Shown: positions 18,145 to 62,596 of the stretch, one piece after another
Numbering within the stretch: position 1 is the stretch's first letter
Layout of the letters: the number at the start of each line of letters is the position of its first letter
Assembly: GCA_963706325.1 (NCBI GenBank)
Contig: CAVPLT010000004.1
Location: forward strand, 640,001-704,000
Direction of reading: 5' to 3'
DNA: 64,000 nucleotides
Source: an uncultured Nitrospiraceae bacterium
GTDB taxonomy: Bacteria; Nitrospirota; Nitrospiria; Nitrospirales; Nitrospiraceae
The notes under the pieces: generated by a model
Database searches by the model: none
What the model saw: the letters and a program-made list of their open reading frames with translations, nothing else
Told to the model about the DNA's origin: nothing
Made by a program: the position numbers and the translations under genes

Positions 18145-18537
18145 AGAAAGTCGCCCATTAGGTTTAACTGCTCAGATGGCATAAGGCTAGGATCAGTATC
18201 GGCCACATGGGTAAAAGTCTGAAGCATATCGTGGAGCCGTCGAGGAGTGCACCTTCTATGCCATTCTTTTGTCGTCTCGGGGGCCTGTGGGCTTTCCTTG
18301 CGCGCCCCAATGATGCTGAAACGCCGTTGATTTGACTAGATTCTGTTAGCACCAGGTCGGCCGGTTTCTGGGCTTAGGGCCCGGCTGGGTCGTCAACTCT
18401 GACGCTCATCCCGTTGAGCGTCAGAGTTAGGGGGGTGTAGGGCATCACTCATCTCAATGATGGATTATACATTGGTAGCCGGTGAAGGCCAGTCGAAACG
18501 CAGCTTCTGAAATCGTGCCGAAACTGTCTCATGTGAT

Positions 18538-18566
18538 TTGCTCTTTGCAGCCCCGTTTACTATAAT
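18538..18566 (+). promoter_or_regulatory. sigma70 promoter of the rph-rdgB-(tRNA) operon
   Basis: TTGCTC-17 nt-TATAAT. Confidence 0.7.
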
Positions 18567-18607
18567 CCGCTCCTTTAGATTTAATGTCGAGGAAGGGGTG
18601 CGACTTA

Positions 18608-19351
18608 ATGGCGAGTGGAGCGGGGTTGGGTCGGATCGATGGGCGACGGCGGGATCAAATCCGGCCGGTCAAGGTGACACGAAATTTTACGAAACATGCC
18701 GAAGGATCCGTCTTGATCGAAATGGGGGACACGAAGGTCATCTGCACGGCTTCCGTTGAAGAAAAGGTTCCCCCTTTTCTGAAAGGGAAGGGGAGCGGGT
18801 GGGTCACGGCTGAATATGCCATGCTGCCACGGGCCACACATGATCGCTCGCCACGGGAAGCAGTCAAGGGCAAGCAGGGCGGGCGAACATTGGAGATTCA
18901 ACGTCTGGTCGGACGTGCCTTACGCGCGGTCATCGACACGACGCGGCTGGGGGAGCGGACCATATGGATCGATTGCGACGTCATTCAAGCTGACGGTGGT
19001 ACCCGTACGGCTTCAATTACCGGAGCTTTTATTGCTTTGGCGGATGCGATGACTGTCTTGAAAAAGAAAGACCTTGTGAAGAAGAATCCCCTCACCGAAT
19101 ACCTGGCGGCAATCAGTATTGGAAAAGTCGGCGGTCAAGTATTGGTAGACTTGGCGTATGAGGAAGACTCGCACGCTGAGGTGGACTTGAATCTGGTGAT
19201 GACCGGCGCGGGACAGTATGTCGAGGTGCAGGGTACGGCTGAGCGGACTCCCTTCAATAAGCGGGACATGGATGAGTTTCTCGACCTCGGGTGGGGGGCA
19301 ATCCGCGAACTGGTCGAGTTGCAGAAATCATTGATTGGCTCACTTGGCTGA
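18608..19351 (+). CDS. rph: ribonuclease PH
   Basis: [43 protein letters not shown]. Confidence 0.98.
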
Positions 19352-19968
19352 TGACGCAGATTGTGCTCGCTACCAGAAATCATCATAAGAAGCAGGAGCT
19401 TGTCGCACTGCTTCAGGATGTAAGCGTCCCTATTCGAACGCTGGATGATTTCCCCGGGGCGCCGGATGTCGTGGAGGATGGCGACACCTGTGAAGCGAAC
19501 GCCATGAAAAAAGCCGTAGAGATTGCACGCTACACGGGATTGCCGGCGGTCGCGGATGATACCGGCCTGGAAGTCGATGCGCTAGATGGACGACCTGGGG
19601 CCTTTGCGGCTCGGTACGCGGGGGAACATGCTAGTTATGAGGACAATTGCCGAAAACTGCTCCAGGAGCTTCGTGGGATTCCGGCAACAAAGCGCAGCGC
19701 TCGATTCGTAACGGTTGCGGCCATCGCATTTCCTGCCGGCGAGACCGCATCGGTACGAGGTGTCTTGGAAGGATCGATTGCCGAAGAGGCTGCCGGTTCT
19801 CATGGGTTTGGGTATGATCCGATTTTCATCGTACCGGAATATCAGCAAACGTTGGCTCAACTGCCGCCTGACGTGAAAAACAGTATCAGTCACCGTGCCC
19901 GTGCCTTTAGCGAGGTGAAGAGACTATTGACGCAGATGATGGCAGAACGGAGCTCAGTCGGGGCGTAG
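19351..19968 (+). CDS. rdgB: non-canonical purine NTP pyrophosphatase (dITP/XTP, Ham1 family)
   Basis: LATRN..K, ADDTGLEV, GFGYDPIF, KNSISHR. Confidence 0.96.
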   Translation: MTQIVLATRNHHKKQELVALLQDVSVPIRTLDDFPGAPDVVEDGDTCEANAMKKAVEIARYTGLPAVADDTGLEVDALDGRPGAFAARYAGEHASYEDNCRKLLQELRGIPATKRSARFVTVAAIAFPAGETASVRGVLEGSIAEEAAGSHGFGYDPIFIVPEYQQTLAQLPPDVKNSISHRARAFSEVKRLLTQMMAERSSVGA

Positions 19969-19997
19969 CGCAACTCGGTAGCGCGCCTGCTTTGGGA
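19954..19997 (+). repeat. displaced 5' half of tRNA-Pro (left junction of island A)
   Basis: 44-bp copy of 27825-27868 with 2 mismatches; no tRNA 3' half follows. Confidence 0.9.
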
Positions 19998-20260
19998 TCA
20001 CAGGAGACGGGGGTTACTCAAGTCACTGACGACTCGGGTAATCCCCGCGCTAGTCTTGTAGATTTGCTTCGTGGTCCTCTCAGTTCTCTCTGTTGCTCTC
20101 CTCTTGCTTTCCACCCACTTTGTCCCTCTTCCTAACACTGTAATAACACCTGTTAACACGCCCCCCGGGGGTACCCTTGGGACAATGGGCGGGGGCGTCG
20201 CCTGTGGCGGGTACCAGTACCGTGTAATCCGGTCTTATCAAAAAGCCGAGTATGCAGCTT

Positions 20261-21427
20261 TCATTGCAATGGGCACGTACCGACGCACGGAACGCTCCAA
20301 CCGTTCCTACTAAGGAACACGTCTGCTGGATTTATCTTTAGGGGTCCATTTGCAGGGTCGGGGCACTCGGCTTGCCCCGTCGGGCAGTCTTTGAAGAGGA
20401 AGTCAAACGCCTCCGTCGATGGACCGTTGCATTGGGTATCGTAGCATGTGTCCCCAATCCAGGCGGGGCCACAGCCGAAATTATTGCTCACGGGATAGTT
20501 GATGGCAGGGTTGGGGTAGCCTCTAACCATTTTGAAATAACAGCCCTCAAGATCGTTCCTTATCAGCGGAACGACGATATGCCATCGCGTTGGAGAGAGG
20601 GTCTGCCACAACCACACCGCATAGCTCATCTCCCCAGCGGTACGCATCGCCTTCTGCTGCTCATCCGTCGGCGCAGTGCCTACGATGGACGCGGCAAACG
20701 CGTTCAATTGTGACCAATCGGTGACGACCTGGTGGTGAGTATCATTGTTGCCGTTCAGCGCCGTGTTGTACATGATCGCGAGCTTGCCTTTCACTTCGCC
20801 GACCGCCAGGTTCGGGTCCGAAGGAAAGCCACCGTGCTTACCAATATAGTTCGAGACTTGGTTAAAGACATTTGAAAACACGGGCGGAAGACCGACGACC
20901 GCGCCACCGATGGCTAATCCGACCCCGAGGAACAACTGCGTCAGATTTGCGGCTATTTGGCCGGCAGGGTCCACATTCTGCAATTTGGCGGAGACCGAAT
21001 CGACATCGAAATCCGTCTCTGCAAAGATTTGCGTCAGCAGCGTCTGGCTGCCCGTGGGACCCAGTAGCCAATCATTGGCGGTTTGGACATAGCTCAGCTC
21101 GGTCCTGATTTGTGCTGCGACCGGGGTCCAGTTGGCAGCGATGCACGTCGGTGGAGGCGACAGGGCACGCAAGTTCCCTTGCAGGGTCGCAATAAGGCCG
21201 GAATCAGTCAGTTCGTCGTAGTGGCTGCGGAGGTCTGTGCCATAGGTGCCCGGCGACGTGCTGATGTTCGTGCTGAGGTACTGATAGCAGGCATTCTGAT
21301 CGCCGGGAAACGGCGGGAAACTGGGCTGGCCGGCGTGAGCGTGTCCGCCAAGCACGGTCGCAAGCATCATCACCCCTGGGAGCAGCTTCCATGTCCAGGC
21401 GCTATGTTGTCCTGAGCGCATAAGCAT
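20261..21427 (-). CDS. secreted Cys-containing hypothetical protein
   Basis: 388-aa ORF, signal peptide ending AHA, central hydrophobic Gly-rich stretch, Cys-rich C-terminus. Confidence 0.75.
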   Translation of the reverse strand: MLMRSGQHSAWTWKLLPGVMMLATVLGGHAHAGQPSFPPFPGDQNACYQYLSTNISTSPGTYGTDLRSHYDELTDSGLIATLQGNLRALSPPPTCIAANWTPVAAQIRTELSYVQTANDWLLGPTGSQTLLTQIFAETDFDVDSVSAKLQNVDPAGQIAANLTQLFLGVGLAIGGAVVGLPPVFSNVFNQVSNYIGKHGGFPSDPNLAVGEVKGKLAIMYNTALNGNNDTHHQVVTDWSQLNAFAASIVGTAPTDEQQKAMRTAGEMSYAVWLWQTLSPTRWHIVVPLIRNDLEGCYFKMVRGYPNPAINYPVSNNFGCGPAWIGDTCYDTQCNGPSTEAFDFLFKDCPTGQAECPDPANGPLKINPADVFLSRNGWSVPCVGTCPLQ

Positions 21428-24829: not shown

Positions 24830-25215
24830 ATGAAGCTAAATCAACTGATCACCTGATCGCGGATGTACTCTCGATGGCCATGGACATTCGACAGCATGTC
24901 GAAGATCGGCGGAGGGGTCTGACCCCCTTGCAGATGGATGGACTGTCAAATGCCGTCCTTGCGATCCATAATTACCTCCGTTCCTGGAAGGCTCACGAAC
25001 TGGGGCTCAGAGAAGCTTCGTTAATCCGCGCCTCCACCGCTCCCGCCAGTCCCCGCACAAAGGAATCATGCCATGCTGAAAATCCCATCAGAGAAATCGT
25101 TGAAGCTCATCTGAGTGCTGATGCGGATTGTCCACAGCCATCCATCAATGAGTCATCTAAAGGTAGTGGCCGCTTATGGAATGCGGGCGGGGAGTGTAAG
25201 AACAGGTTTCGGTGA
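24830..25215 (+). pseudogene. frameshifted paralog of 59059-59346
   Basis: near-identical peptide IRQH.EDRRR.LTPLQM; ATG 24830 is out of frame with the body. Confidence 0.6.
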
Positions 25216-26503: not shown

Positions 26504-26827
26504 ATGATGCAGCCGTCGCGAGAGAATGAGAAAGCAAAGAAGAAAACATCAAAGGTGGAAGCCAAGAAGACCGCTAGCTCGAAGCCCAAGGATTCACTAC
26601 GCCAGCGGCCCACCACTTCTTCACCTCCGCCTCCACTCTCAGCCGTTCCGGAACCTCCTTCAACAGGACCAGTGTTGACACAAGAGGAATATCGGGCGCG
26701 TGTCGCCCGGAAAGCGTTTGAGCTATTCCAGAAGCGGCAGGCTCTTACAGAGGTGGACGATTGGGTAGAGGCAGAACGCTTGGTCAAGCTGCAACTGCTA
26801 GATGAGCAACAGGGGGCATCCGTCTAA
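26504..26827 (+). CDS. DUF2934-like protein
   Basis: RVARKAFELFQKR...DDWVEAER motif; GGGGAG RBS. Confidence 0.7.
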   Translation: MMQPSRENEKAKKKTSKVEAKKTASSKPKDSLRQRPTTSSPPPPLSAVPEPPSTGPVLTQEEYRARVARKAFELFQKRQALTEVDDWVEAERLVKLQLLDEQQGASV

Positions 26828-26875
26828 ATTTCGGTGCTCGGTACTTCTCAACGGCGATTGCCTAAAGAACTACCT

Positions 26876-27073
26876 ATGTCACTTCCAGATATTCTTCGAT
26901 GCCCATGTGGGTTTGCGATTGCCACAAGCGCGTATGAAATGGAGTGGCCGGATGCAGCCGTTGACGCTGGGAAGATTGTGGAGGAACCCAACCCAAAGTA
27001 CCGGGAATATAGTTATGCTTGTGTTGAGTGTGGACGGTTCATAGTCAATCGCCAACCCCCAAAGCCGAAATGA
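26876..27073 (+). CDS. small zinc-finger-like protein
   Basis: CPCG...CVECG. Confidence 0.45.
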   Translation: MSLPDILRCPCGFAIATSAYEMEWPDAAVDAGKIVEEPNPKYREYSYACVECGRFIVNRQPPKPK

Positions 27074-27191
27074 CCCGCCTTCCACTAGTGGGTGAGACCA
27101 ACTCATATTTGCAGTGACCCACCGAGCTGACCACAACGCCAAGGCGGCGCGGAAGTTGGCGACGATGGGGGTGGGCATGCACTACAAATGA

Positions 27192-27829
27192 ATGTCAACT
27201 TTCCTGAGCCGTATATGGTCTCTTCGGATTGCTACTTCCGAAGAATGGGAACGGCTTCAAGCTGTGGCTGCCCCCCATTTGAAACGATTTCTGACAATAG
27301 CCTACGTTGTGGGGCCTCGGCGAGGGGAGTTGCTCAAGTTGGAATGGCCTGATGTCGATATGAAGAGTAAGGAATTTACGTTGCGGCACACGAAAAACGG
27401 GGAGACACGGACTGTGCCTATGACCCCGATCGTGTATCAAGTATTCCTTGAACTGTGGACGGAACGTCGCCTAGACACTCATCGTGTGTTCCTGTATAAA
27501 GGAAAGCCATGGAAGAATCCCCGAACTGCCTTCGCCGCTGCGTGTCGCCGAGCTGGGATCAAGTGCGGACGACAGGGAGGGGGACTAACTCAGCATGACT
27601 TTCGGCATACCGCCAGTACGAATCTGAGGCGAGCCGGTGTCGATACCATGACCGCCATGAAGATTGTGGGACATAAGAGCGAGCAGATGCATCGACGGTA
27701 TAACACGATCGAGCCAGCAGACCTCCATGAAGCTGCCGCGAAGCTCCATCGGTACGCGGCTAACACGCTAATAACACCTCCCGATTCTGGTGCGGCTCAG
27801 TCACCTGCAAGTGCTGGAAATCATTCAGT

Positions 27830-27839
<10 letters not shown>
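27192..27839 (+). pseudogene. tyrosine integrase, catalytic domain only (N-terminus missing)
   Basis: GPRRGELL, TKNG, HDFRH, VGHKS, RRYN catalytic residues; stop codon lies inside tRNA-Pro. Confidence 0.9.
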
Positions 27840-27907
<68 letters not shown>

Positions 27908-27912
27908 CAATT

Positions 27913-29097
27913 TCAACCACTTGCGTCGTCTTCGCGGTTCTCTCCATCCCCCTCCGTTCCGGTTCCTGTCACGGTTAGACTTGAATTCTCTCTCGCCTCT
28001 GTCCGTTCCAGGTCCGGCCTGATCCGTCCACTGCTTGTCCTTCCCAAACCCTGACACGCCCTCAAGCGCACCGTGTAGATGAGTGGGGGAGAGGTGGGCG
28101 TATCGTGCAACCAAGTCTGTTCCGCTATGTCGAAGGAGCGCGGCAATGGTACTAGGAGCCTGTCCGTTCATGGCGAGCCGTGAGGCGAACGTATGCCGCA
28201 ACGTGTGCCAGGTGACGCCATCCAGCTCGGCGCCTTCAGGGCCGTCATATAGATCCGACCATAGAAGTTATCGGGGTCGAGGTGAGTCTTGGGGTTCTGA
28301 CTGGGGAACACCCAGACGGATGTATTCCCGGGGATGAGGCTTCTCAGAATCTCCTTGGCCTCTTTCACCAAGTGCACGTATTGCACCATCTTTGACTTGG
28401 TCTGAGGGAGGGTAATCAACCCTCGGTCTAGATCAATGTCGGCCCATCGTAGGCTGAACTGCTCAGACTTCCTCAAGCCCGTGAGAATGGCTAGCCGGAT
28501 CCAGGCATCATACGGGTGACCGATCGCCTGACACAGCTTTGTCTCTTCCTCAATGGAGAGGAAGCGAGTTTTGCCCGCTCGTACCGTGGGCAGCTTGACG
28601 CTGCTGAAAGGGCTTTTCTCAATCATGCCTCGCCCGATGGCCCACCGAAACACATGCCGAAGGAACTTAAGATAATGCACAATGGTTTGGGGCGTGTAGA
28701 GCTTCGCGGCCAGGTCTGCCATGGCTTGATCGAGCATGGTCGCCGTGACGGCGTGTAGGGCCTTCCCTGTGAGACGGTCTGTCCACCAGCGCCCATAAAA
28801 GGTCTCATCCGCAATGGTGGACGGCTTCTTTCCACTGGTGGGGAGTGTGGCGAGATACGCGGCAATCACCGATGAGGCTGATTCCTTCCCGCCATGCCGA
28901 TAGCGCTCCGGGAAAAACCGTCCGTCCTTCTGGTCTTGCTTCGACTTCTCATAGAAGTTTCGGGCTGCCGTTTTCGTCGAGAAACTGCCGAATCGCCGCT
29001 CCTTCCCTTCGTGATAGAGCCGCACATTCCATACTGTCTTACCCGTCGAATCTTTCCTTGCCAGCAAGCCCCGATCTTTTCTCCCTGCTCGTGCCAT
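27913..29097 (-). pseudogene. tyrosine integrase of island B, frameshifted
   Basis: LTGLRKSE and TKS in ORF 28168-29097; HTLRHTFASRL, LRHS, RYAH continue in another frame. Confidence 0.9.
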
Positions 29098-30396: not shown

Positions 30397-31916
30397 TCAG
30401 TCGGATACACCTGACGGTGCGTGTCGCGTCGGGTCTCTGACAATCGCCCCTTGGTCTAAAAGAGACTTCCACACCTGATTGAACAGCAGTCCGTCGGCAT
30501 TGCCGTGGCGTTGGATGGTGCGTCGGCTCAGGCATCGTCCCTGGGCGAGGGCGCGTCTGATACTCTGTTCGCAGCGACCGGCCGGGGTTCGGGCATGACC
30601 GGCCAGCAGCGGCGCGACACGTTGCGCTTGAGTCTTGAAATATTCGACGAGTTCCAAGGCCGCCCCGAGGGATTCCTCCTCAACCTGGGTCGCCTGGGGT
30701 TGGATGCCACGGCATGAATCAGCGCGAACCGCGGGGCATACCCTTTCAGCTTGGCGTAGGCACCGCGCACGATCGCAGGAAGGGCATGGTTTTCTTGTTC
30801 TCGACAATGCTGATCATGCCACTCGATGAACAAGGCTTTGGCGGTTGGACTGAGCGGGAGGACGATCGAGCTGCCGTCCGGATGAGCGGGCAGGCTATAG
30901 AGGCGTGCGACCAGTTCAGCGTACGCGTCTTTGACTGTGCTTCGTAGGATGGCCGACGGCCAGCGCACCGGTACGGGATTAGGAAACGCAAAAAGGAGGC
31001 GATGGAGAAAGCCGTCCTCGCGATTGTCTTCATCTAGGTCAGGCAACACATCCGGGGGTACACAGCCGAGGACGGACAGGAATGGTTTCGAGACCAAGAT
31101 AGGATCTTTGCCTTTTCGGTCGACCGCCAGCGGTTCCGAACTCCAGGCAGAGAGAAAAAACTGCTTATCAGAGCCATTCCCGTTTCGATATTGATTGAAG
31201 CCTTTAATCCACGCCGACAGCTCATCTCGTAATATGAGGATGCCTTGGGGATTCTCGCCCAGCATCCCACCCAAAGCTTCCGTGGTGACGTCGGCCGTCC
31301 ACGTGCGTTGAAAGACGGGCTTCTCGGGCTTGGCGGGCACCTCATCCGTTTCCCGCTTCTTGTGCGCATCGAGATCGCGATGATATCGGGCGATGCGTTC
31401 GTCATAGTCCGCCAGTGCGAGGCTGTACGCGTCTTTATATCGGTCCTGTTGGCGGTAGATAGGCGAGGCGACGAGGTTCAGGGCAGGCGTTTTCAGGGAT
31501 CCGGGATCCGCAATACACGCGAGATAGAGGGAGGCTCCAGCCGTCCAATCCGGTTTGAGCTGAATGGCCCGACGAGTGCCAATGGCGGCCCCAAGACACA
31601 CCAGGACTGGCGCAGCAATCAGATCCACCGGGACCGGCAGAGACGCCGCGGCCTCACGGACAAAGTCTTGGACCGGTTCCGGTAACGCTTCGACGGGAAA
31701 CGAGGGAGCGCCCACCTCTGCCTCATTCATGTCGGCTGATTCTTCCGCCGTACCGACACCGACAACCGACACAGGGGTGTGGGTCGTTGTAACGGCAAGC
31801 GCTTGCGGAGGCCCAGAGATCATTGAGGAGAGCCCGTCGAGAAAGTGATCCTGGACCCGTTGCGTGTCCGTCTTCGCGAATCGTTCGGCTTGTTGAAGGA
31901 ATGCCGTGTCACGCAT
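30397..31916 (-). pseudogene. DUF3987/YfjI-like replication helicase-type protein, frameshifted near 30697
   Basis: FPVEALP, IADPGSLKTP (Walker A-like), DVTTEAL, RDELSAW, DGFLHRLLF. Confidence 0.85.
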
Positions 31917-32367
31917 GTTGCAGGCCCTCCGCTTCGAGTAATTGCCAAGCATGGCCGACCGAATCGAGCGCCCTGTCCAGTTCGTCATTCGTCCAGGTGT
32001 CGATGGAGAGGCCTTGAGCCGACTGGACCAAGCGCTCCGCCTCTCGAAGTGCGTCCGACTGGCGGCCCTTTGCCAGCGCAGCCGCCTGCTGGGTGGCTCG
32101 TGCTCGGGCTCGTTGCTTTATTGCTTGTCGACGATCTGGCGAGTCAGGAATGTCGCGGTCGTAGAAGAGGTCTACGACGCGCAAACCGAGTGCTCGGGTG
32201 ATGTCTCCAAGGGAGCAGCCACTCCAGCACCGTACCAACAAGCCGCGATCTCCTTCCTTTACGCTGAGGCTTGGAGAATGGTCGTCATGGCTGGGACATC
32301 GCGATTGCCAGCCTCGGGGCGTCTGTTTCGCACCGTCCACAAGTTGAAGGAAACTGTCGATGGTCAT
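31909..32367 (-). CDS. primase zinc-binding domain protein
   Basis: WQSRCPSHDDHSPSLSV...LVRCWSGC. Confidence 0.8.
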   Translation of the reverse strand: MTIDSFLQLVDGAKQTPRGWQSRCPSHDDHSPSLSVKEGDRGLLVRCWSGCSLGDITRALGLRVVDLFYDRDIPDSPDRRQAIKQRARARATQQAAALAKGRQSDALREAERLVQSAQGLSIDTWTNDELDRALDSVGHAWQLLEAEGLQHA

Positions 32368-41924: not shown

Positions 41925-42344
41925 GAGTGTCTAGCGCCCAGCCGTGAGTTCTCCCAGTATGCTACTCAGTCATGACGTGTCTGGAGTCGCTTCAGAATAG
42001 GAGTGCGGTTCTTCGGTTCGCCACAGCGCGCAGAGTATCCTCGCCGCTGGATGAGCTGGCCATCAGGGGTCCAGGTAAGCGTCCGATGGGGACACATTCC
42101 GGATCGTCGGGAAAAAATATCTCCATGCCGCGACTCTACGGAAGCCGCCGTGGTGAAGGACATTCCACGGAGGATGGGAACGGCTGTCCGAGTGGTGAAG
42201 GCGAGGCGAGCGATCGTTGGCCTACCATGGGACCTTCCTCGACTTAACCCTACTGAAGTCCCCCTGGTACAGTCTCAGCCTGCAATGGGCTGGGCGGGTA
42301 CGGGGCTTCCCCTAGTGGTGGGGTCTTATCGTGTGCTGTAGCAT

Positions 42345-43049: not shown

Positions 43050-43484
43050 TGTGTTGTCCGCTATTTTGACGGGCCATCGATCTGCTGCCCGGCTACGAAC
43101 TCACGCGGGGGTTCCGGCGGACGGCATGACTATTTGTCCCTTCTCCCAGCCACAAGGTGATGGTTATTCCGCTCTTCGGCCATTCATGTCGTTTAAGTCG
43201 CCACTCCCGTTCAGCAGATGTGGGGAAGACTCAACCGCGCCACTGATTCGCCGACTTCTCTCGTCTCATTCGTTTCTTTCGTAAAGAGGAGCGGGACAGG
43301 CGGCCGGGGGATCCGACCGCCGAGGATCTCGAAGGGACCTCTAGCCGCGTCAGCTTTAGGTCGGTCACTGCCGGCGACGAATGACTAGCACTTCTTGCAT
43401 AACGGGGATCAGGGATATCCGGAGTAGACCCGCTTCCGGCGCTGGATGGTGACATGCCAACAGTGCGTATGCGAGGCGTCGTGG

Positions 43485-44991: not shown

Positions 44992-45287
44992 AGGTTCACC
45001 CTTTCTTCATTCATGGAGAGAGCATGGTGGATGAGTTCAACCCCGAACTCCGACTCACGAGCCCACGTGACGAGGCCCTCCATTCGATTCCGTGTCGTGC
45101 TGGGCACCTGCAGAGACAGCACCACCACCATGCCGGGACTCGCAAGAAGATGGCTTTGGACGAGGCACCGGCTGGGAGAGAGCTCCCACACCCAGCCGGA
45201 TGCGATCACGCCCTCCTGGCACAGACAGACCGTGCAGGAGATGGGAAGATCGGTCAGATCTGTTGGGCAATAATGTGAAGTTTGCAT
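44988..45287 (-). CDS. degenerate PilZ-like protein
   Basis: GWVWELSPSRC...VTWARESEFGVEL; lacks RxxxR. Confidence 0.65.
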   Translation of the reverse strand: MQTSHYCPTDLTDLPISCTVCLCQEGVIASGWVWELSPSRCLVQSHLLASPGMVVVLSLQVPSTTRNRMEGLVTWARESEFGVELIHHALSMNEERVNL

Positions 45288-45505
45288 GCCGCGACTCTAC
45301 GAGCGCCGCCCTCGAAAAGGACATTCCACGGAGGATGGGAACATGGGTACGAGTGGGAGGCGAACCGCTCAACTCATCAGCGAAAGCGCGCTGCGTCTCC
45401 TGGCGAAAGGCGGTTGGGATGGAGCGGAGGCCCCAGAGGCGAACGGCCAGGGTCATAATAGAGCTGGCCGCTAGACACGGTTCCCGGTATACCGTCCACG
45501 CGCGT

Positions 45506-45898: not shown

Positions 45899-46543
45899 GA
45901 GGGAGTCGTCGGCACAGTGTCTGTCAGGCGACGGGCCGGCCACGGATCCGGACGGGATGGGGGATTTCAATATGCGAAGGCCGGGGGCCTTTTTATACCC
46001 ACACGGCAGACCGAGTTCTTTCGTTTAATTCGTTTATTTCGTAAGGAGGAGCAGGACCGCCGGCCGGGGGATCCGGACTGACGAGCAAGTCGACAGGCGA
46101 AGGCCGGGGGTCTGAATCGTACATAGGTCGTATATGTCGTTTATGTCGTCTACCCATTGGCAGAATGGGAGAACGCCTCCCGAGCTTTCGAGACGAAGGT
46201 CAGGGGGGCTTATTTCGCTAATTCGCTTTTTTCGCCAGTAGACGCAGCACACGAGGTTGCCGTGGAGATGTGTGTAGCTAGGCCAGGGGTTCCCTTTTTG
46301 CCATGGTGGCCCCGCCGACAAACCGGGGGGTCTTTCCTGCCAGGGAGAGCCGAAAATCTCCCCTCCATCGTTCCGGTTTTCGTCACGGTTGCGGCTAGGG
46401 GATTCCCTGGTTTCTGCTCACGCAGCTCCCCCCGGTGTCATGCTGTAGTCTCCTGTATCCGATCGTCACTATAACCACTGGAATCACTGGCCTCTAGGTA
46501 CGTGGCGTGTCGCCCTGTATCTCATGGCTGAATATTCTAATGG

Positions 46544-46592
<49 letters not shown>

Positions 46593-46755
46593 CTACTTGA
46601 CAGACTGCATGAAATGCATGTGATAGTCGTGAGTACATACCTCACACCACCTCTGACCCTTTCTCCATCATGACTTTTCCCAAGCTCCGGCATGGCTTGC
46701 GCGGGTGTGAAGAGTCTCTTCCTACCTATCCAATATTTTTCCCCAAGCCATGTTA

Positions 46756-46800
46756 GTGGGCCCAATAGCGTCGACGGAGCCTCCTATGCTTAAGATGAGG
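46756..46800 (+). repeat. heavily decayed 5' half of tRNA-Arg (candidate left junction of island C)
   Basis: GTGGGCCC-ATAGC-GTCG-GAGC-TAAGATGAGG colinear with GTGCGCCC-GTAGC-GTCG-GAGC-TAAGCTGAGG. Confidence 0.45.
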
Positions 46801-47288
46801 TGCCCTCTCACCGATGAATTTCCGTCCGTTGGATGAAATTCAGCGGTACTTTCACTACCCCTCTATTCCGCTTCGAGTCAGTCATCTCGCCTACTGTTTT
46901 CCGGCGAGGGTGGGAACTGCCAAGGCTGGCTTTGCACGATGGTGGCCACGTGCAAAGCCAGAGAATGATCCCATTGGCTTTTTCCCAATCTGCTGCGCTG
47001 ATCAAGCACCTCATAATGGTTGTGTTAATAGGAAGTGTTCGCGGCCCTAGGTCTTCTCCTAGGATCGAGGAATGTTCCAAGACGATACAATGTCACTCGC
47101 CGATGCGCAGACCTACAATGGTGTGCCTGTGCGCTTTCGGAACAAAGAGCATTTAAGATCACGTATCAATGGGACGGGCACTATTTAAAGGGGGACTATG
47201 GGAATGGACATGATTGCTCTGAGAGGAACTCCTTGCCAGGGGACTGCGAAAAAAAAAACGTCTCTCTATCCGAGCCATCACGGTTCAC

Positions 47289-48020
47289 TTGGCCCTATGT
47301 ACCCTCCTATTCGGGAGCATTGCTCCATGGGTGTCGGCTGCGGGTGAGGACGATGTGCGAGAGTCGGCCCGCCTGTTGGCGGTATTATTGGATTCTGGCC
47401 GGGTGGCGATTGGCCAAAACCAGGAATTGATCAATGACCCCGGAAAAGGGGACAAAGGTTTCACCCCAGAAGTGTTTGCGGAACAGACGATCGCCTTATT
47501 TAAAAATCGAACCGGGCATGATTTGAAAAATCTTCAGACCGCTCACATACCCACCATGGCTAAGCCATTGCTCAAAAGGCTCTTGGAGGAAAGTAAGCAA
47601 ACCGTGGCGACGTATCAAACCGTCATCAACATGAAAGGAATCAAGTACAAAGGATTGATACCAGCGACGTTCGGTACCGAGACAGGAGCCCGATTCCAAC
47701 TCTGGTCCGGCCTTTACCTCAAGCAGACCGCACCCGATCATCTTCTTCGTAACAGTAAGAACAAAGCGGATGAGTTTGAGCTAGCCGCAATGCACCGAGT
47801 GGGAAATTCAGAGTTTTCTGGCGAGGGAGATCAGATCTTAAGCGAAGTAGCGGAAGGTGGAAAGTCTCTACGTGTTCTTCTCCCTTTGTTTTATAACAAA
47901 GCCTGTTTGAGCTGCCATGGTGAGCCCAAGGGCGAGCGAGATGTGACCGGGTATCCCAGGGAAGGCGCGCAAGAAGGAAACTTGGGAGGGGCCATTAGCG
48001 TGAAACTTCCTTTGCCATGA
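47289..48020 (+). CDS. Tll0287/DUF3365-like periplasmic c-type heme protein
   Basis: CLSCHG heme motif, LRNSKNKADEFE, GNLGGAISV; true start may be ATG 47198 across an A10 tract. Confidence 0.85.
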   Translation: MALCTLLFGSIAPWVSAAGEDDVRESARLLAVLLDSGRVAIGQNQELINDPGKGDKGFTPEVFAEQTIALFKNRTGHDLKNLQTAHIPTMAKPLLKRLLEESKQTVATYQTVINMKGIKYKGLIPATFGTETGARFQLWSGLYLKQTAPDHLLRNSKNKADEFELAAMHRVGNSEFSGEGDQILSEVAEGGKSLRVLLPLFYNKACLSCHGEPKGERDVTGYPREGAQEGNLGGAISVKLPLP

Positions 48021-48114
48021 GGCGAGCAGAATGAACCACCCGGCGTTTAACCTGCCTGCGTCCGTAGCGCACAGTGCTAATGCGCCTGCCATGCCTCGAG
48101 CCCTGTGAACTGCA

Positions 48115-48306
48115 TTATTGCAGTGCCTCATCAAAATAGTCAGGAGCGAAGGTCGTCCCACAACTATTGCAATGCCACTCGGGGCCTCGTGGAGTGACTC
48201 TATGCCCAGGGATTTGGGGAATAATCAAGCGTCTTTCGGGCACAACCTGCTTGTGGCAATGGGGACAATAATATGGCGGCACGGGTGTAGGGCCTTGTCG
48301 TACCAT
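48115..48306 (-). CDS. small zinc-ribbon protein
   Basis: CPHC...WHCNSCGTTF; AAGGAG RBS. Confidence 0.55.
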   Translation of the reverse strand: MVRQGPTPVPPYYCPHCHKQVVPERRLIIPQIPGHRVTPRGPEWHCNSCGTTFAPDYFDEALQ

Positions 48307-48734
48307 CTGATTACGGCCGCTCCTTCCAGACGAGATTACCGAACTGACTATCTCGCCGTCCTTTTTCTACGTCCAGAAAATTCTTGAAACAGGAATGGGC
48401 TGCATCATATCCCATGCGCTACTCTCGTCAGCGCAAGTCCCGCTTGGGCCAATGAAAGACTCAACAGTCCTGAGTTGGAACAATGAGCAACAGCCCTGCA
48501 GCTGCAAAGTGATCCACGCTTTGGACAGGAAGACCACCAACGTGCCCAGAGTCATGAGACCTATCGTCACGATAAGCGCACGGCGTCTGCATACGCGCAG
48601 TCTTGCCACAACGCACGTTTTCACGTATAAAGGCCGACCGCTAGAGCGGGAGAGCAGGTCCTTTGAGAGGGAAGAGGGGAAATGAGAAGGGAGTAAAAAG
48701 GACGAGAAAGTATGAGTTGTGTATGATAGGTCGT

Positions 48735-49298
48735 ATGACCAGAGCAGCGCCAACGCAGTCTCCGCAGGATGAAAAACTACGCGAACTTATTGTTTATATT
48801 TCATGGCGCAGTAGGAAGGACCCGAACTTCGGCGCAATAAAACTTAATAAATTACTGTTTTTTGCAGACACGGCAGCCTATCGAGAATTGGGTAAATCTA
48901 TTACGGGAAGCGAATATCAACATCTGCCGGAAGGTCCATGCCCTCGGCGCATCCTGCCAGCAAGAGAACACTTGCTGAGTCAGACACCACGAGCTATCGA
49001 GTTGGCTTATCAGCAAACAGCTATCGGCAACCGACTGCACCGCATCATTCCTAAGCGAAAGCCCTATAGCATTTTTTCAAGGCCAGAAAGAGACATTGTT
49101 GACCGAATTGTAAAACACTTTGAAAGCTACACTGGCACACAACTCAGCGATCTATCGCACAAGGAACTTGGCTGGAGATTTACCACCGATTATCAAACTA
49201 TCCATCTTCGGACGTCTTGGCTGTCTCCTGAGCCTTTGACTGAAGAGCAGATACAGGTAGGCCAGCAATTAGCTCGAAAGCATGGACGTACCGTCTAA
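48735..49298 (+). CDS. Panacea/DUF4065 (SocA/GepA-like) antitoxin
   Basis: KLNKLLFFAD...GKSITGSEY..LPEGP...LSDLSH...W. Confidence 0.85.
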   Translation: MTRAAPTQSPQDEKLRELIVYISWRSRKDPNFGAIKLNKLLFFADTAAYRELGKSITGSEYQHLPEGPCPRRILPAREHLLSQTPRAIELAYQQTAIGNRLHRIIPKRKPYSIFSRPERDIVDRIVKHFESYTGTQLSDLSHKELGWRFTTDYQTIHLRTSWLSPEPLTEEQIQVGQQLARKHGRTV

Positions 49299-49542
49299 AT
49301 CGTATCAGCTCATCGACTCAAAAGAGTATTGCAAGGCGGCGAGGCAGCTTTATTCGCCTTTCAAGATTCGAGATGATATTCATGACCTATTCCTGCGGGA
49401 TTTTTCGGGCAATCTCAGTGAATGCCAGCAGGTGCCAGGAACCTCACTGTATGCTATTCCATTGCGGACTGTGTCACCGCTGACGATATACTTTACAATG
49501 AACGGGAATATCATCGAATTGATAGACGTGGAGCCGATTTAG
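49282..49542 (+). CDS. putative RelE-like toxin
   Basis: 86 aa, overlaps antitoxin 3' end; RelE-like layout (helix pair, VPGT loop, C-terminal strands IYF...IELIDV). Confidence 0.5.
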   Translation: MDVPSKSYQLIDSKEYCKAARQLYSPFKIRDDIHDLFLRDFSGNLSECQQVPGTSLYAIPLRTVSPLTIYFTMNGNIIELIDVEPI

Positions 49543-49684
49543 TGAAGGAATAAGCATCGCAAATTCTACACCCTAGCTTGATAGACACATCCGTTCCGAA
49601 GTCAGCCATCACTAACCCTTCCCTTAAGCCTACTAAAAAGGGAAAGAAGCAGAATGCCTTTCATCCACGTTAAAGACTTTTATA

Positions 49685-49924
49685 TCAACGTGGATCTGCC
49701 CCTTGTTTGTCCACATATTTAAGGTTCGTCGCTCTCGCCACTTCCTCGGCCTCTGCTTTAGTGGGCAGTGTGCGATTGGAATTGCCCGCCGTGGGATGCA
49801 CGATCTCTCTTTCAGCGACCGACACCGTCACCTTGCCATGGGGCACCCATCCACCTTCGGCTCGCTCCGTAGCCCAAACTTGGGCTCGATAACCTTTATA
49901 CCGGAAAGGGGTCTGTGCGCTCAT
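49685..49924 (-). CDS. small hypothetical protein (paralog of 25479-25727)
   Basis: GGAGG RBS before MSAQTPFRYKGY. Confidence 0.6.
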   Translation of the reverse strand: MSAQTPFRYKGYRAQVWATERAEGGWVPHGKVTVSVAEREIVHPTAGNSNRTLPTKAEAEEVARATNLKYVDKQGADPR

Positions 49925-50260
49925 TGGGGCACCTCCACTGACATTGGCTGGCCTAGGTTTCTCCTGGCCCCTCGATACCAGTCGCCAACTTGTTTGCATT
50001 AGATTGTCGACTGTCCACCTACCTCAGAACACCCGGCACGACGAAGGAGCAGCAAAAGGGGAAGATCCGTGATGACTAAGCTCATCACGGGTCATGGAGT
50101 GTCAGGCCATTAAGGCACCAGCTTGGCACCATGTGCCAAACTGAGCGCTAGCGTCCTCCTTTAGTCGCCGCGTCGGCATGCAAGACAGTCATCGCTCATC
50201 GCCCGCTGAGGGACTGCTTTTCTCGGAGCCTATGGAGCTGCACGCCGAGGCGCACGGCAT

Positions 50261-50608
50261 TCAGCAATCGCTACTTTGACACCGGCTTGATGAGATAGTC
50301 GCAGACGCCTGGTTTGCGAGAATTTCGTTGAGGAGACAATCCGAGTCGGCCGTCAGGATTAGGAAAGGGATGGTGGGGTAGTGGGTTCGAAGGTGCGCGA
50401 TCACCTCTGCTCCGTTGATTTTCGGCATTTGGAGGTCACAGATGATCGTCGCAATGTCCGCCGTCGGGCCGGAGCTCTTCATCCTGGCAATAGCGTCCTC
50501 ACCATCGGAAGCCTCCACGACGCGATACCCGGCCTTCGTCAGCATGAAGTGAACCGCATTCCGGATGTCGGGATCGTCATCGACGATCATCACCGTCGCG
50601 GCTTCCAT
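50261..50608 (-). pseudogene. response regulator with frameshifted C-terminus
   Basis: MIVDDD, ICDLQMP; DYLIKP motif falls in another frame. Confidence 0.75.
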
Positions 50609-50741
50609 CAGATATACCTCTTTACAAACGGCTTTGTTGATTCGTCGTCATACCCTCCGATCCGTTCGCGTCGCTCTTCGGTTGTTGTCACCTAGTCTCC
50701 TAACGAGGCACTGATGCCCGCCTTTCAGTATGCCGGTCGGT

Positions 50742-51041
50742 TTAGGGGTGCGTGATAAATGCCAATGTTCTCGTGTCTTTTTGCGGCGATATCGCCCCTT
50801 TTGTGCTGGAGTCCTTTTGTTTCTGCGAAAGCTTCCGCTCACACTCGCGAATCACTTCACTCACCTGTATCTTTTTCCTCAAGGAGAGTTTTTCAAAGTT
50901 CGTGGGCGTGAACACTTCGCAAGGATTGCCTACTGAGAATGCTGACTGCGCATCCATCGCTAGTATCACGCTAAAGATAAGGAAAGGTTTTATGGAGATC
51001 CAATGAAGGTGTCGTTGAGAGGTAGTCATAATGACCTCCAA
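50742..51041 (-). CDS. small exported hypothetical protein
   Basis: GGAGG RBS, hydrophobic N-terminal segment. Confidence 0.4.
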   Translation of the reverse strand: MEVIMTTSQRHLHWISIKPFLIFSVILAMDAQSAFSVGNPCEVFTPTNFEKLSLRKKIQVSEVIRECERKLSQKQKDSSTKGAISPQKDTRTLAFITHP

Positions 51042-51634
51042 GAGATGCCTAAATGAGAGGGACTAAGTTCATCAGATGTTCAAAATTTATGCATCGGCAT
51101 GGCCGATGATCGATTTCTTGAGCCCGGCTGTAGGGAAGAGGGATACGAAGGGGGAACTTCCGACTGACGCTCGTCCGTTCGCAGTGGCGGTGGCTTACTC
51201 GATCGACACGATCACGGAGGCACTTCCCAATGTGTCGTGTGACTGAACCCACACGCATGAGCGACATCTCCTCTTAGCGATTCGTGATCGAGAGCGCCGT
51301 GCACCATAGACGCATGCACGTTGGGAAAGTAACAGAAGCAAACGATCACCATAAGTAGACTCTACCCACTGCTTTACATGACGACCTGATCATCTCGATA
51401 CGTGCAAGTTAGCGACCTGCCGCGAACTCTCCAGGCGGGATCAGATAGAAAAGCATGAGATCGTTGAGAATCCTGCCCCCTATATAGAAAATACGGCACC
51501 GGACTCACGTGAATCTAAAAAGATACTTCTCGTATCTCATCAGATACCAAACTCCTGATGAGGAAGGCAGCAAGATTCACGGCAGGGCGAGCTAAGCCTG
51601 TGCTGAGTGTAGGTTCCGATTTAAGCGTGCCGCA

Positions 51635-51650
51635 TGGTACAGGGTTTGCT
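51635..51650 (+). promoter_or_regulatory. sigma54 (-24/-12) promoter
   Basis: TGGTAC-N5-TTGCT. Confidence 0.55.
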
Positions 51651-51690
51651 TTGTACCTATCGCATCAGTCAATGCGAAAGGAAGAATGAA

Positions 51691-51768
51691 ATGCATGCCA
51701 TGGTGACCGTTTCACTCGTGACCCTGCTAGTCAGTGGGCTCGCCATCATGAACGTCTGGAGGTCCTGA
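51691..51768 (+). CDS. 25-aa single-TM peptide
   Basis: hand translation MHAMVTVSLVTLLVSGLAIMNVWRS; AAGGA RBS; follows the sigma54 site. Confidence 0.35.
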   Translation: MHAMVTVSLVTLLVSGLAIMNVWRS

Positions 51769-51875
51769 GACCGTTCGATACGTTCCAGGCCAACCGGTTC
51801 TCCTGCGATTCGCCACGCCAACCCTGAAGGAGGAGCGGTCCATGTCTCACCGAGGCGTCTGCCACACAACGTACC

Positions 51876-52250
51876 ATGCCGCGACTCTTAGTCGTCGAAG
51901 ATGATCCCGATCAATCTCGGATGCTCTGTGACCGTCTGAAGCTGTACGGCTATGCCGTGGGTTGTGCGAACGACGGCCCGGTAGCCTTGGAGATGCTTCA
52001 GACTGATTCCTTTAACGGTCTCCTGCTCGACCTGAACCTTCCCACCATGCCAGGACACCGTGTGCTGGGACAGGCCCGGCATGCCCGTCCCGATCTTCCC
52101 GTCCTCATCATGTCCGCTTCGCTGGGTAGGATTTGCACGCTGAAGGAAGCAGGGCCCACCGCGTGTACCTATCTCGTGAAGCCCTATAACAGTAGCGAAC
52201 TCAAACAAGCCTTGGTGAAGTCCTTCGGTCCGCGCCCGGAGGCGATATAA
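51876..52250 (+). CDS. single-domain response regulator
   Basis: LLVVEDD, LLDLNLP, YLVKP. Confidence 0.88.
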   Translation: MPRLLVVEDDPDQSRMLCDRLKLYGYAVGCANDGPVALEMLQTDSFNGLLLDLNLPTMPGHRVLGQARHARPDLPVLIMSASLGRICTLKEAGPTACTYLVKPYNSSELKQALVKSFGPRPEAI

Positions 52251-52283
52251 CATTGAACACCAATGCTTGGAAGAAAAGGCGAT

Positions 52284-53450: not shown

Positions 53451-54139
53451 ACGTCCACTCTCCCATTCCATCATCGCGAACGACTACAGTGATCGGCTTC
53501 TCGTCTGGCGCAATGCACTCTGCTGACTGGCAATTTGCTGCGGCGGATGTTACGGGGAAGATGCAAGGAGCTTGTGTCTGTATGGCACATGGTTGGAGAG
53601 GCTCCTAGACCGCTGATTGCCTATCAAGCACCAGCCTCAGAACGCGTGGCCAACGCAGCGATCTTTAGGTCTGGTGCAAGGTGGTGCCAGCTAATGGCTC
53701 GACCTGTGATTGGACAATTTGAAGGCAAAATAGGTAATCCAGGGGTTCACGACTGGGCACTCGCGCCACTACACCGGCTAGAGCCAAGGTTAGCCCTTCA
53801 CATCTCGGTGGCAGCATCGTACCAATCCCATTCTTTCTATCCCTATTTCCTAACACTAGGCTAACACCTACCCCCCTCATGGTCACTCCCTGCCACCCGC
53901 CATTGGTTTTGGTACCATCTGGGAAATGCGCGGTGAAAACAAAAGGGCGGGACGTTTCCAGCTTTGCCGCCGGTGGTTACTGCCTCGGGTGCCTGACATG
54001 CTCATGACAGGGAACATCCAGGCCCGTTGCGTCCTGCTTCCAACCGGGGGAGGTCCGGAAGTGCCCTGTGAAAACCTGCGCTTTTGGCCTTACCGAATGG
54101 GTAAGCGTTCAAAAGGGATGAGTGAGAGCGAGGCTAGCC

Positions 54140-54343
54140 ATGAATGAGCAGATATCCATGAGAAAGCTGTTAGGCGTTGCGGAAGGCGCACAGTACACAG
54201 GCCTCTCTATTCACACCGTCTATGCGATGGTAAGCCAGCGGCGTATCCCTTACGTGACGGTGGGGAGGCTGGTGAAGTTTGATGTACCCATGCTGGATGC
54301 CTGGATACAGAAGAACACGGTCATGCCGATGCCGCCTAGATGA
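54140..54343 (+). CDS. excisionase-like HTH protein
   Basis: GAQYTGLSIHTVYAMVSQRRIPYVTVGRLVKF. Confidence 0.85.
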   Translation: MNEQISMRKLLGVAEGAQYTGLSIHTVYAMVSQRRIPYVTVGRLVKFDVPMLDAWIQKNTVMPMPPR

Positions 54344-54414
54344 GCCTAGGAGTGGGGAAGTGGAAGTAGGCGGGGGGCCCCCTCGCCACCCATCCCTTCT
54401 CAATTCACATCAGG

Positions 54415-54543
54415 CTATTGCAGGAGATAAAAGGCCAAGACACACAGGGCAAAAACGAGGCTCGCAACCGCAAGCTTGAGGTACCAGAGGTTATTGTAGT
54501 CGGTCTTATTGAATGTATTGGTGTAGCGGTTGCGTTGGTTCAT
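54415..54543 (-). CDS. 42-aa C-terminally hydrophobic peptide
   Basis: hand translation MNQRNRYTNTFNKTDYNNLWYLKLAVASLVFALCVLAFYLLQ; AGGAG RBS. Confidence 0.4.
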   Translation of the reverse strand: MNQRNRYTNTFNKTDYNNLWYLKLAVASLVFALCVLAFYLLQ

Positions 54544-54633
54544 CCCATTGCACTCCTAGGACCATTGTACCGGACCGCTAGGCATAAGAGAAAGCCTCTG
54601 CCAGAGTGGTAGACGTAACGCTACCATCCTATT

Positions 54634-54847
54634 ATTCACACACACCTAAAGGAGTGGCGCGAGAAGCGGGGGTTGTCCGTTCGCAAGCTGGGCGAACTGG
54701 CAGGCGTGCATTACGTCTCGATCGTCCGTATGGAATCCGGGAGACTTGACCGCCAGCTCACAACCGTTCCTCAAGCTGTGTGAGGCATTAGGCGTTACGC
54801 CCAATCAACTTTTAGGGGTGGCCACTAAGCCACGGAAAGGAAGGTAG
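54634..54847 (+). pseudogene. XRE/Cro-like HTH regulator, start lost and frameshifted
   Basis: LKEWREKRGLSVRKLGELAGV...RMESG then LKLCEALGV in a shifted frame. Confidence 0.7.
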
Positions 54848-54851
54848 TCCG

Positions 54852-55810
54852 ATGGGACTGACAAAACACAGGGACAGCTACTATGTGGAGTTTCCCGTGG
54901 ATGATGGCAAACTTTATCCCTTGCTATTGGCGGTGGGGGCGGACTCAAACGCTGGAAGGTCGGTTGTGTCAATAAGACGATGGCAAAGCAGCAGGAGGCG
55001 ATCATTAAGACGCAACTCCTGACTGCTCAACTCACAAGCCCTGCGAAGGCTCGTGCGGAATCGACCACCTTTAGGCAATGGGCACACCAGTATTTCCAAC
55101 TAGCCGAGGTAAAAAAATCAAAAGCTACCGCATGCGATGTGATTACGTTCGCAACTTGGTCAGTTTTTTTGGGCAATAATTCCCTTGGAGCCATTACGCC
55201 ACAAGACGTGCGCCTGTATCGGCAACAGCGTGTAGGGCCCAATGGTAGGCCCTTGGCGGTTCAAACCATCAACCACGATCACACTGCCTTAGTGCACATG
55301 CTCAATGTGGCCAAAAGCCCGCAATTTAGTCTGATTAAAGATAGTGGCCCGACGTAGACATGTCACGCAAGGAGTTTACGTTGCGGCACACGAAGAATGG
55401 AGAGACACGTACGCTGCCTATGACCCCAGATGTGTATAGAATCTTCACGGATCTATGGCAGGAGCGGAGACTAGACACTCAACGTGTCTTCCTGTACAAC
55501 GAAAAGCCGATCCGGGATGTGAAGACCGCCTTTCAGAAGGCGTGCCGTCGGGCGGGAATCACCAATTTCCGGCTTCACGATCTCCGGCACACGGCGAGTA
55601 CCAGTCTGAGGCGGCAGGGGTGGACGCAATGACTGCAATGAAGATCGTTGGGCACAAGTCAGAGCACATGCATAGGCGGTACAATACTGTGCAGCCTGAG
55701 GACCTTCGCCGGGCCGTCTCGCACTCGGCTTCGTATCAAACTAACACGGTAATAACACCAGGCTCGTTGTCGTATGGTGCTGAAAACCCAAGTGCTTGTT
55801 TTTCTAACGT

Positions 55811-55820
<10 letters not shown>
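54852..55820 (+). pseudogene. tyrosine integrase of island C (frameshifts and internal deletion)
   Basis: fragments MGLTKHRDSYYVEF, KEFTLRHTKNGETR, HDLRH, VGHKS, RRYN; stop codon inside tRNA-Arg. Confidence 0.9.
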
Positions 55821-55887
<67 letters not shown>

Positions 55888-62215: not shown

Positions 62216-62559
62216 AATCGCCCTTCCTTTATTAGGTTCATGCAGGTGCCAACTTCAACGGGGCGGCCCCACAGTCCCTCGGACGGCTCTACCGATGCGC
62301 GTCTCGAGAGGCCAGGAGTTCGTGTGGTCCGTAGCGACATGTGCTTGGTAGTCCAACCTTGGGAATGATAACCAGGGTCATCCATACAAGATTGCATCCC
62401 CAACCCGTTAACAGTTGACTCCCATCTGCTACCGTGGCCTATCTACGTTAATCCCACCCTAGCACACATCAACGCCCGGTATCCCCTTGTTCTAAGCCAC
62501 TTTTGCCGTTATCATTCTCACTCGTTCTTAATCACGGTGTCGTCCGAACGGTGTTTTAG

Positions 62560-62596
62560 GCTGAGGGTCGTTGGTTCGATTCCACCGGACGCACCA
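62560..62596 (+). repeat. displaced 3' half of tRNA-Arg (right att of island D)
   Basis: GCTGAGGGTCGTTGGTTCGATTCCACCGGACGCACCA. Confidence 0.9.

Follow-up and report, generated by a model that had tools for sequence, protein, structure and literature searches.

Among described mobile elements, those closest to the locus analyzed here are islands inserted at tRNA genes. In Islander, 5'-fragment islands account for 159 of 3919, and some integrase genes extend across attP (PMC4383910). An arrangement in which the integrase is followed by the tRNA (SIT) is rare; SIT and OD together make up under 8% of 1273 pairs (PMC2951348). Extension of the integrase gene across attP is also known from Myxococcus phage Mx8 and the SSV type (as cited in PMC4383910 and PMC4701971). 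In Mx8 the crossover lies inside int, and integration exchanges the C-terminus of the protein, 112 residues for 13 (PMC4701971). The E. coli genes secG and leuU are 14 nt apart without overlapping; a single RNase P cut separates them, after which secG mRNA has a half-life of <30 s (PMC2241853). Additionally, int is controlled by promoter switching in ICEKp1, where the tRNA lies upstream of int (PMC13023037), and the lambda sib site is distal to int (described in PMC2951348). An overlap between a phage tRNA and an opposite-strand gene has also been reported (PMC10865867). Full-text literature searches found no account of a sense-strand stop inside a tRNA for integrases or rdgB; the pair table of PMC2951348 may contain such overlaps.

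Here we describe integrase genes, and the host gene rdgB, whose reading frames end in sense orientation inside a tRNA. This overlap is real and extends across a clade, and it is apparently undescribed. A sense-strand overlap between coding sequence and tRNA means that one RNA must serve as both message and tRNA precursor. We consider the stop inside the tRNA to be, more likely than not, a tolerated by-product of attachment-site layout rather than a selected off-switch.

Stacked islands and integrase frames in the window

The window, the whole 64,000-nucleotide stretch of DNA analyzed, belongs to a genome of 4.2 Mb, and relatives of its integrases are found almost entirely within Nitrospira-type genomes. 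Stacked islands break up the native gene order rph-rdgB-tRNA-Pro-tRNA-Arg, with the following features:

18584..19351 (+): rph (RNase PH; PF01138 and PF03725), host gene 5' of rdgB
19351..19968 (+): rdgB, Ham1-family pyrophosphatase (PF01725), translation ending ...SSVGA-stop
19966-19968 (+): rdgB stop TAG, nt 8-10 of the tRNA-Pro 5' half
19959..19997 (+): nt 1-39 of tRNA-Pro(tgg), a displaced 5' fragment at island A's left junction (repeat D7)
20008..20047 (+): GC-rich hairpin on the island side of left junction A (z = -3.2), putatively terminator-like
20133..20150 (+): TAACAC direct repeat close to island A's left end (repeat D6), putative arm-type Int site
27192..27839 (+): intA, catalytic-half remnant of a tyrosine integrase (PF00589, E 4.7e-27)
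27761..27778 (+): TAACAC-n3-TAATAACAC repeat within the intA coding tail (reads NTLIT), putative arm-type site
27808..27818 (+): CAAGTGCTGGA, degenerate copy of the conserved YAAGTNNTTGA motif in the intA tail, which we take to be IHF-like
27830..27906 (+): tRNA-Pro(tgg), the genome's sole tgg call
28168..29097 (-): intB, convergent integrase belonging to island B, which is of the 3' type (PF00589)
46544..46590 (+): nt 31-77 of tRNA-Pro, a displaced 3' fragment at island B's right end (repeat D3)
53851..53869 (+): TAACAC repeat close to element C's left end (sequence repeat)
54140..54343 (+): HTH_17 (excisionase-like) gene of element C (PF12728)
54908..55820 (+): intC pseudogene, three frames and an internal deletion (tblastn against a homolog)
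55742..55759 (+): TAACAC-n3-TAATAACAC repeat within the intC tail (sequence repeat)
55789..55799 (+): CAAGTGCTTGT motif in the intC tail, with TGT where the sister clade has TGA
55811..55887 (+): tRNA-Arg(tct) (tRNA call)
62554..62596 (+): tRNA-Arg 3' fragment, displaced and with slight damage, at the right end of another 3'-type island (repeat D12)

Island A fits the Islander definition of a 5'-fragment island: the tRNA at 27830-27906 and the same-strand fragment at 19959-19997 lie 7.9 kb apart (criterion 2-200 kb), and the interval holds a tyrosine integrase (PF00589), here a remnant and in locus L009 an intact example of 368 aa. The displaced fragment stops at the 3' side or edge of the anticodon loop (nt 39). 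The tRNA-Pro(tgg) now present is likely a composite, with a 5' half given by island A and a 3' half by island B, both probably island-borne. Element C falls outside the displaced-fragment definition of Islander, as no tRNA-Arg(tct) 5' fragment was found in 46500-55800 (best 22/39) or genome-wide. By homology, it appears to behave as a 5'-fragment island whose left junction has been lost. Viral contigs gave no close relatives (best 34% identity) and all phage records matched at <60%, too distant to mark the elements as prophages. Cargo includes a 388-aa ORF without a Pfam match at 20261-21427(-), a DUF3987 protein at 30528-31988(-) and a protein with a SocA/Panacea antitoxin domain at 48663-49298(+). 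Diverged direct repeats (77-86% identity) occur within or between islands at 24833-24999 and 59063-59229, 42124-42195 and 45285-45356, and 43251-43315 and 46011-46075.

The first-pass annotation had placed the stop codons of intA and intC on the TAG at tRNA nt 8-10 and the end of rdgB over the displaced copy, and these positions are exact; rdgB, too, stops at nt 8-10. The intA frame, 27192-27839(+), ends ...NHSVGA-stop, its TAG (27837-27839) covering nt 8-10 of tRNA-Pro(tgg). In intC, the final frame reads ...FSNVRP-stop, and its TAG (55818-55820) covers nt 8-10 of tRNA-Arg(tct). The two integrases of the window survive as remnants: intA is the catalytic half only, aligned to residues 203-388 of a 400-aa homolog, whereas intC is broken. 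Their tails are equal in length, with 131 nt from the catalytic tyrosine to the tRNA. On identity and spacing the two appear to form one integrase group (intC being too broken for the tree), and thus the two overlaps are not independent observations.

TAG occupies nt 8-10 in 29 of 51 ARAGORN calls of the window genome (counted by eye), so any frame entering a tRNA in the matching register stops there. The endings VGA and RP are set by the tRNA sequence together with a GT leader. We dropped a C-terminal degron (V-x-A) as an explanation because Arg and Gly targets end in VRP and VES; the ends differ by target (VGA, VRP, VES, VSH) and have no common degron, which supports the by-product reading. 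A PDB search with the integrase returned only XerA/XerC-like matches, which stop short of the tail. Two further integrase remnants of the window genome enter tRNAs in frame, with other stop positions:

G000:C4:596450-596809 (-): remnant into Arg(acg), stop at nt 21
G000:C2:103712-104257 (-): remnant into Ser(tga), no stop within the tRNA, reading through the whole of it

Three more long frames in this genome end at nt 8 (Val-cac, Met and Val-tac); judged by eye, they are not protein-like.

Stop positions among integrase homologs and host rdgB genes

Genome and metagenome searches yielded 214 distinct integrase 3' ends; of these, 164 run in the same direction as a tRNA (co-oriented), 32 are convergent and 18 lack a tRNA call. 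The sample comprised 30 plus 60 loci from one list of 131 matches and the best 80 of 488 from another; exact duplicates were dropped and close kin kept, so the counts are not independent. The first-pass annotation had suggested testing whether homologous integrases stop at tRNA positions 8-10. They do so in part: 60 of the 164 sampled co-oriented ends stop at nt 8, and the remainder at nt 27 (24), at nt 21 (1) or upstream of the tRNA (79). For Pro(tgg) targets (n=62), 45 stops fall at nt 8, one at nt 21 (frameshifted) and 16 upstream; for Gly(ccc) targets (n=42), 24 fall at nt 27, one at nt 8 and 17 upstream. Arg(tct) targets have 10 stops at nt 8 and 19 upstream, and all 25 ends at Arg(cct), Thr and Leu targets are upstream. 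The catalytic tyrosine lies 131 nt from tRNA nt 1 in 56 of 62 Pro(tgg) homologs, and this fixed spacing indicates that the reading frame is inherited. Related integrases placed mirror-wise at tRNA 3' ends have 124-128 nt from the tyrosine to the tRNA end. Some near-identical genes differ in having their stop shortly upstream or shortly downstream of the RNase P site (e.g. L180 compared with L176/L179). Additionally, integrases reading into the tRNA occur in hosts whose displaced fragment has no long entering ORF (L009, L011 and L111), again in support of the by-product reading.

Other placements were seen during this census. A distant integrase group (L064, L066, L068, L227, L233 and L342) runs 48 nt into the antisense strand of tRNA-Arg(tct) and ends ...MVRPxGIEPxTLSLEG-stop. 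Also common, in Nitrospira and Bryobacterales, are single tRNA genes with an integrase facing each end, where a 5'-type and a 3'-type island adjoin (L063, L067, L070, L071, L074, L039, L042, L211, L219 and L228). Junctions of integrase and half tRNA in L030 and L343 may be tandem arrays.

We built a FastTree tree from those first-set sequences that had a tRNA call and 100 or more open codons (n=109). Nearly all cases that read into the tRNA fall in one clade of 46 sequences (support 1.00), and its sister clade (51) contains one. The claim that the tRNA 5' half lies within the int reading frame is therefore supported for one clade: of the 48 read-in-type genes whose open frame spans 320 codons or more, 32 stop inside the tRNA and 16 have their own stop, compared to 1 of 35 non-read-in-type genes of that length stopping inside. 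Own stops arise on at least four separate branches of the read-in clade, whose backbone is weakly supported (0.62 and 0.00). In the sister clade, 34 of 35 co-oriented tree members stop upstream.

To ask whether the overlap is selected, we used parsimony to compare stop-creating substitutions with a neutral expectation, a crude method of modest power with small expected counts. In the last 7-8 codons there were 4 against 3.1 expected in 42 intact genes, and 9 against 8.7 in a looser set of 81 genes (100 or more open codons); at this modest power, the latter counts give no sign of purifying selection on stopping inside the tRNA. Two regions were depleted of stop-creating substitutions: the catalytic core, with 0 where about 10.5 were expected (intact sets), and the Pro spacer, with 0 against 3.4. 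Selection for the overlap is not supported, given own stops regained repeatedly, in intact genes as well, at a roughly neutral rate, and given the sister clade, which is widespread, of the 5' type and mostly ends upstream. A special role for T8-A9-G10 is likewise not supported, since Gly(ccc) members stop at nt 27, a single Pro member does so at nt 21, and remnants stop at nt 21 or read through. Neutral stop gain and varied stop positions indicate that T8-A9-G10 is a default stop and not a conserved signal. From these comparisons the tail looks retained, but ending just before the tRNA or inside it seems free; a weak preference would be missed. DNA-level selection for TTGA would make the neutral expectation too low, and could hide such a weak preference.

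The spacer between core and tRNA is also informative. Convergent members keep it free of stops to the same degree (P = 0.005 in either group), and because they cannot be RNase P substrates, their open spacer argues for the by-product reading. Entropy across codon positions is nearly flat in the spacer (1.09/1.00/1.33) compared to the core (0.42/0.28/1.05), suggesting that spacer amino acids are barely constrained. The by-product reading gives no reason for the spacer staying open, and this counts against it. In another reading, translation would be kept to within ~30 nt of the tRNA so that transcription starting inside the island reaches the essential tRNA, a protection from Rho-type termination that leaves the stop free inside this zone. 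Intact co-oriented Nitrospirales members do have stops from -31 to +27 (the exception, L196 at -70, has a tail out of register), the spacer is stop-free, tRNA-Pro(tgg) has a single call in the genome, and no consensus plus-strand promoter was found in the int tail. However, convergent 3'-type members keep an equally long open tail and do not transcribe the tRNA, and many islands, including those of the window, have a truncated or frameshifted integrase yet an intact tRNA. We regard this explanation as quite improbable.

Host rdgB shows the same architecture. It stops inside tRNA-Pro in all 24 loci of the window genus, 23 at nt 8 (in one case a decayed fragment, read by eye) and one at nt 21, and in all 10 loci of a second family, 7 at nt 8 and 3 at nt 21; in neither group is the third, open frame used. 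Other genera of the window family (n=19) include 4 overlaps, 14 own stops and one locus with no tRNA nearby, and in a third family rdgB stops at -4/-5 (3/3). No overlap was found in 33 hand-picked loci from other orders and classes, and 2 of 30 loci in the phylum of a Binatia genome have one (L268 and L270). This sporadic appearance in another phylum argues for a by-product; the persistence in the window genus (24/24) and second family (10/10) argues against. Two under-powered tests of selection on the rdgB tail were not significant, one on the frame (P = 0.30) and one on stop gains (0 against 1.7 expected, P = 0.18; overlap-type spacings only). The rdgB overlap is independent of the island and older, a separate compaction of the rph-rdgB-tRNA-Pro locus, and the state looks old with several losses.

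Because intA and rdgB have TCAGT before the tRNA in common and both end SVGA-stop, an island might have captured the rdgB end along with the tRNA half, so that intA mimics or inherits the host overlap. This is largely refuted and now very hard to credit: among homologs only the last two leader bases are common, the tails align with Gly- and Arg-targeting and convergent integrases rather than with rdgB, and reading into the tRNA also occurs at Gly and Arg tRNAs.

Putative attachment-site DNA and the predicted fate of the integrase message

The int tails carry conserved DNA elements. TAACAC repeats occur at both ends of island A and of element C, with one member of each pair inside the int tail, and the third codon positions of the TAACAC-n3-TAATAACAC repeat in the intA tail are invariant in 23 homologs. 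The YAAGTNNTTGA motif, 11 nt before the tRNA, is conserved at the DNA level. From consensus and DNA conservation at both island ends, we take this motif to be a putative IHF-like site and the TAACAC repeats to be putative arm-type Int sites. The identity of the 5' fragment ends at nt 39, in the anticodon loop, as it does in L009, L011, L037, L080, L082 and L111, placing the probable recombination crossover within that loop.

Of 51 sister-clade members, 48 retain the TGA of the motif, as do 29 of the 32 in which it is out of frame or lies beyond the stop; this retention counts against the by-product reading. All 16 convergent sister members use it as their stop, and outgroup rows mostly keep TTGA. 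In contrast, only 11 of 102 read-in-type sequences have it; TGT replaces it in Pro and Arg sets and CGA or CGT in Gly sets, and in the window the last codon of CAAGTGCTGGA is GGA. These different replacement codons could reflect two independent losses of the in-frame stop. Loss of the motif stop where it is in frame is the best point for the first-pass idea of integrase silencing.

These elements suggest how the by-product would arise. The A and C islands of the window are of the rare kind that carries a 5' tRNA half, located directly behind the integrase gene, and the coding tail probably overlaps attachment-site DNA, with the spacing held constant. If such a tail lacks a stop of its own, it ends at whichever in-frame stop comes first. 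As the motif codon is now usually sense in the read-in clade, translation continues to tRNA nt 8, 21 or 27, as the frame dictates. The island is presumed to restore the tRNA and to have to supply its transcription; in the integrated state, the int mRNA would then be a tRNA precursor cut by RNase P. This cut would destabilize int mRNA whether the stop lies just before or just after it, and non-stop fragments with tmRNA tagging in read-in members would be a side effect. A message ending inside the tRNA necessarily contains an RNase P site in the integrated state, as had been claimed, and the window genome encodes RNase P RNA, SmpB and tmRNA. Since secG mRNA decays after an RNase P cut without any overlap, destabilization of integrated-state int mRNA is plausible for all co-oriented members, with non-stop decay as an add-on.

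A promoter scan found no plus-strand sigma-70 site in 26700-28200 and one weak site in rph. TGTAAT, found 8 nt before the tRNA in many Pro homologs, was rejected as a promoter because the -10 adenine is missing. Decayed islands (L032, L040, L041, L043, L044 and L212) keep ~40 open codons before the catalytic tyrosine, plus the tail; such int ends might be expected if the int 3' end holds the tRNA promoter. Four RNA runs, all shallow (7-26% of words), gave scattered short contigs over 18400-20300, none bridging rdgB and the tRNA fragment.

The element downstream of int differs by state. In our models, the integrated junction has a full tRNA by ARAGORN and a cloverleaf, whereas the circle junction has neither, and int is instead followed by a half tRNA and the hairpin. 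The hairpin at 20008-20047 is located about 10 nt beyond the half tRNA and carries a second YAAGTNNTTGA copy in its loop. By pattern, similar GC-rich hairpins occur at 10 of 21 displaced fragments, and hairpins were found at L009, L011, L013, L037, L080, L082, L108 and L111 and at the Arg-acg island of G000 C4. They were not seen at six Arg junctions of the other type (L029, L031, L093, L110, L303 and L306). In the alignment 83% of cells are paired, with weak covariation (9 rows; 20 of 500 shuffles reach the score) and a weak RNAalifold consensus (-2.2 kcal/mol, partly from misalignment). U-runs follow the hairpin in L108, L111 and L009; the window copy has no U-run and was not called as a terminator.

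Extending the first-pass idea, the two states could form a selected switch in which RNase P and the circle terminator set the Int level. In the integrated state, RNase P would cut 7 nt before the int stop, leaving a non-stop mRNA and tmRNA-tagged Int for degradation; in the circle, the stop would be followed by the half tRNA and terminator hairpin, giving an intact message from which Int accumulates for integration. The geometry fits, the modelled junctions differ as such a switch requires, the conserved hairpin has U-runs at three loci and was not seen at the other-type Arg junctions, the motif TGA is lost specifically in the read-in clade, and the machinery is encoded. Against it stand the neutral regain of own stops, the sister clade without overlap, the window hairpin without a U-run and the weak covariation, and we consider the switch unlikely. 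Similarly doubtful is its broadest form, with RNase P as a retroregulator: integration would complete a tRNA over the int end, so that the stop is cut off and Int goes to tmRNA tagging, the circle would keep a hairpin-capped message, and the same cut would hold down host RdgB in Nitrospira until an island displaces the tRNA half.

If true, the state switch would be a new route of integrase control. The present evidence describes mainly an architectural quirk, and is a caution for annotation filters that reject overlaps between coding sequences and tRNAs. Near-identical natural variants such as L180 and L176/L179 offer a clean in vivo test of RNase P-generated non-stop mRNAs as tmRNA substrates.

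Comparison with described systems

The window has much in common with Islander and SIT islands: a PF00589 integrase by the restored tRNA, a 5' fragment displaced upstream, a junction in the anticodon loop and tandem islands at one tRNA. It differs in that an int frame ending inside the tRNA sense strand is not described in the excerpted text of PMC4383910 and PMC2951348. As in Mx8 and the SSV type, int coding sequence overlaps attachment-site DNA. However, window-type integrases do not have the crossover inside int: their stops (nt 8, 21 and 27) precede the loop at nt 33-39, which leaves the protein identical in both states and changes the RNA context alone.

The secG-leuU pair resembles the predicted window case in placing an mRNA and a tRNA in one precursor, which RNase P cuts once, where the tRNA begins, with fast decay of the mRNA afterwards, but secG has its own stop and a 14-nt spacer, whereas the cut in int would precede the stop codon. 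With ICEKp1 and lambda sib the window has in common an int flank that differs between the integrated and excised states and could set the Int level. ICEKp1, whose tRNA lies 5' of int, acts via promoters, and sib is a site distal to int.
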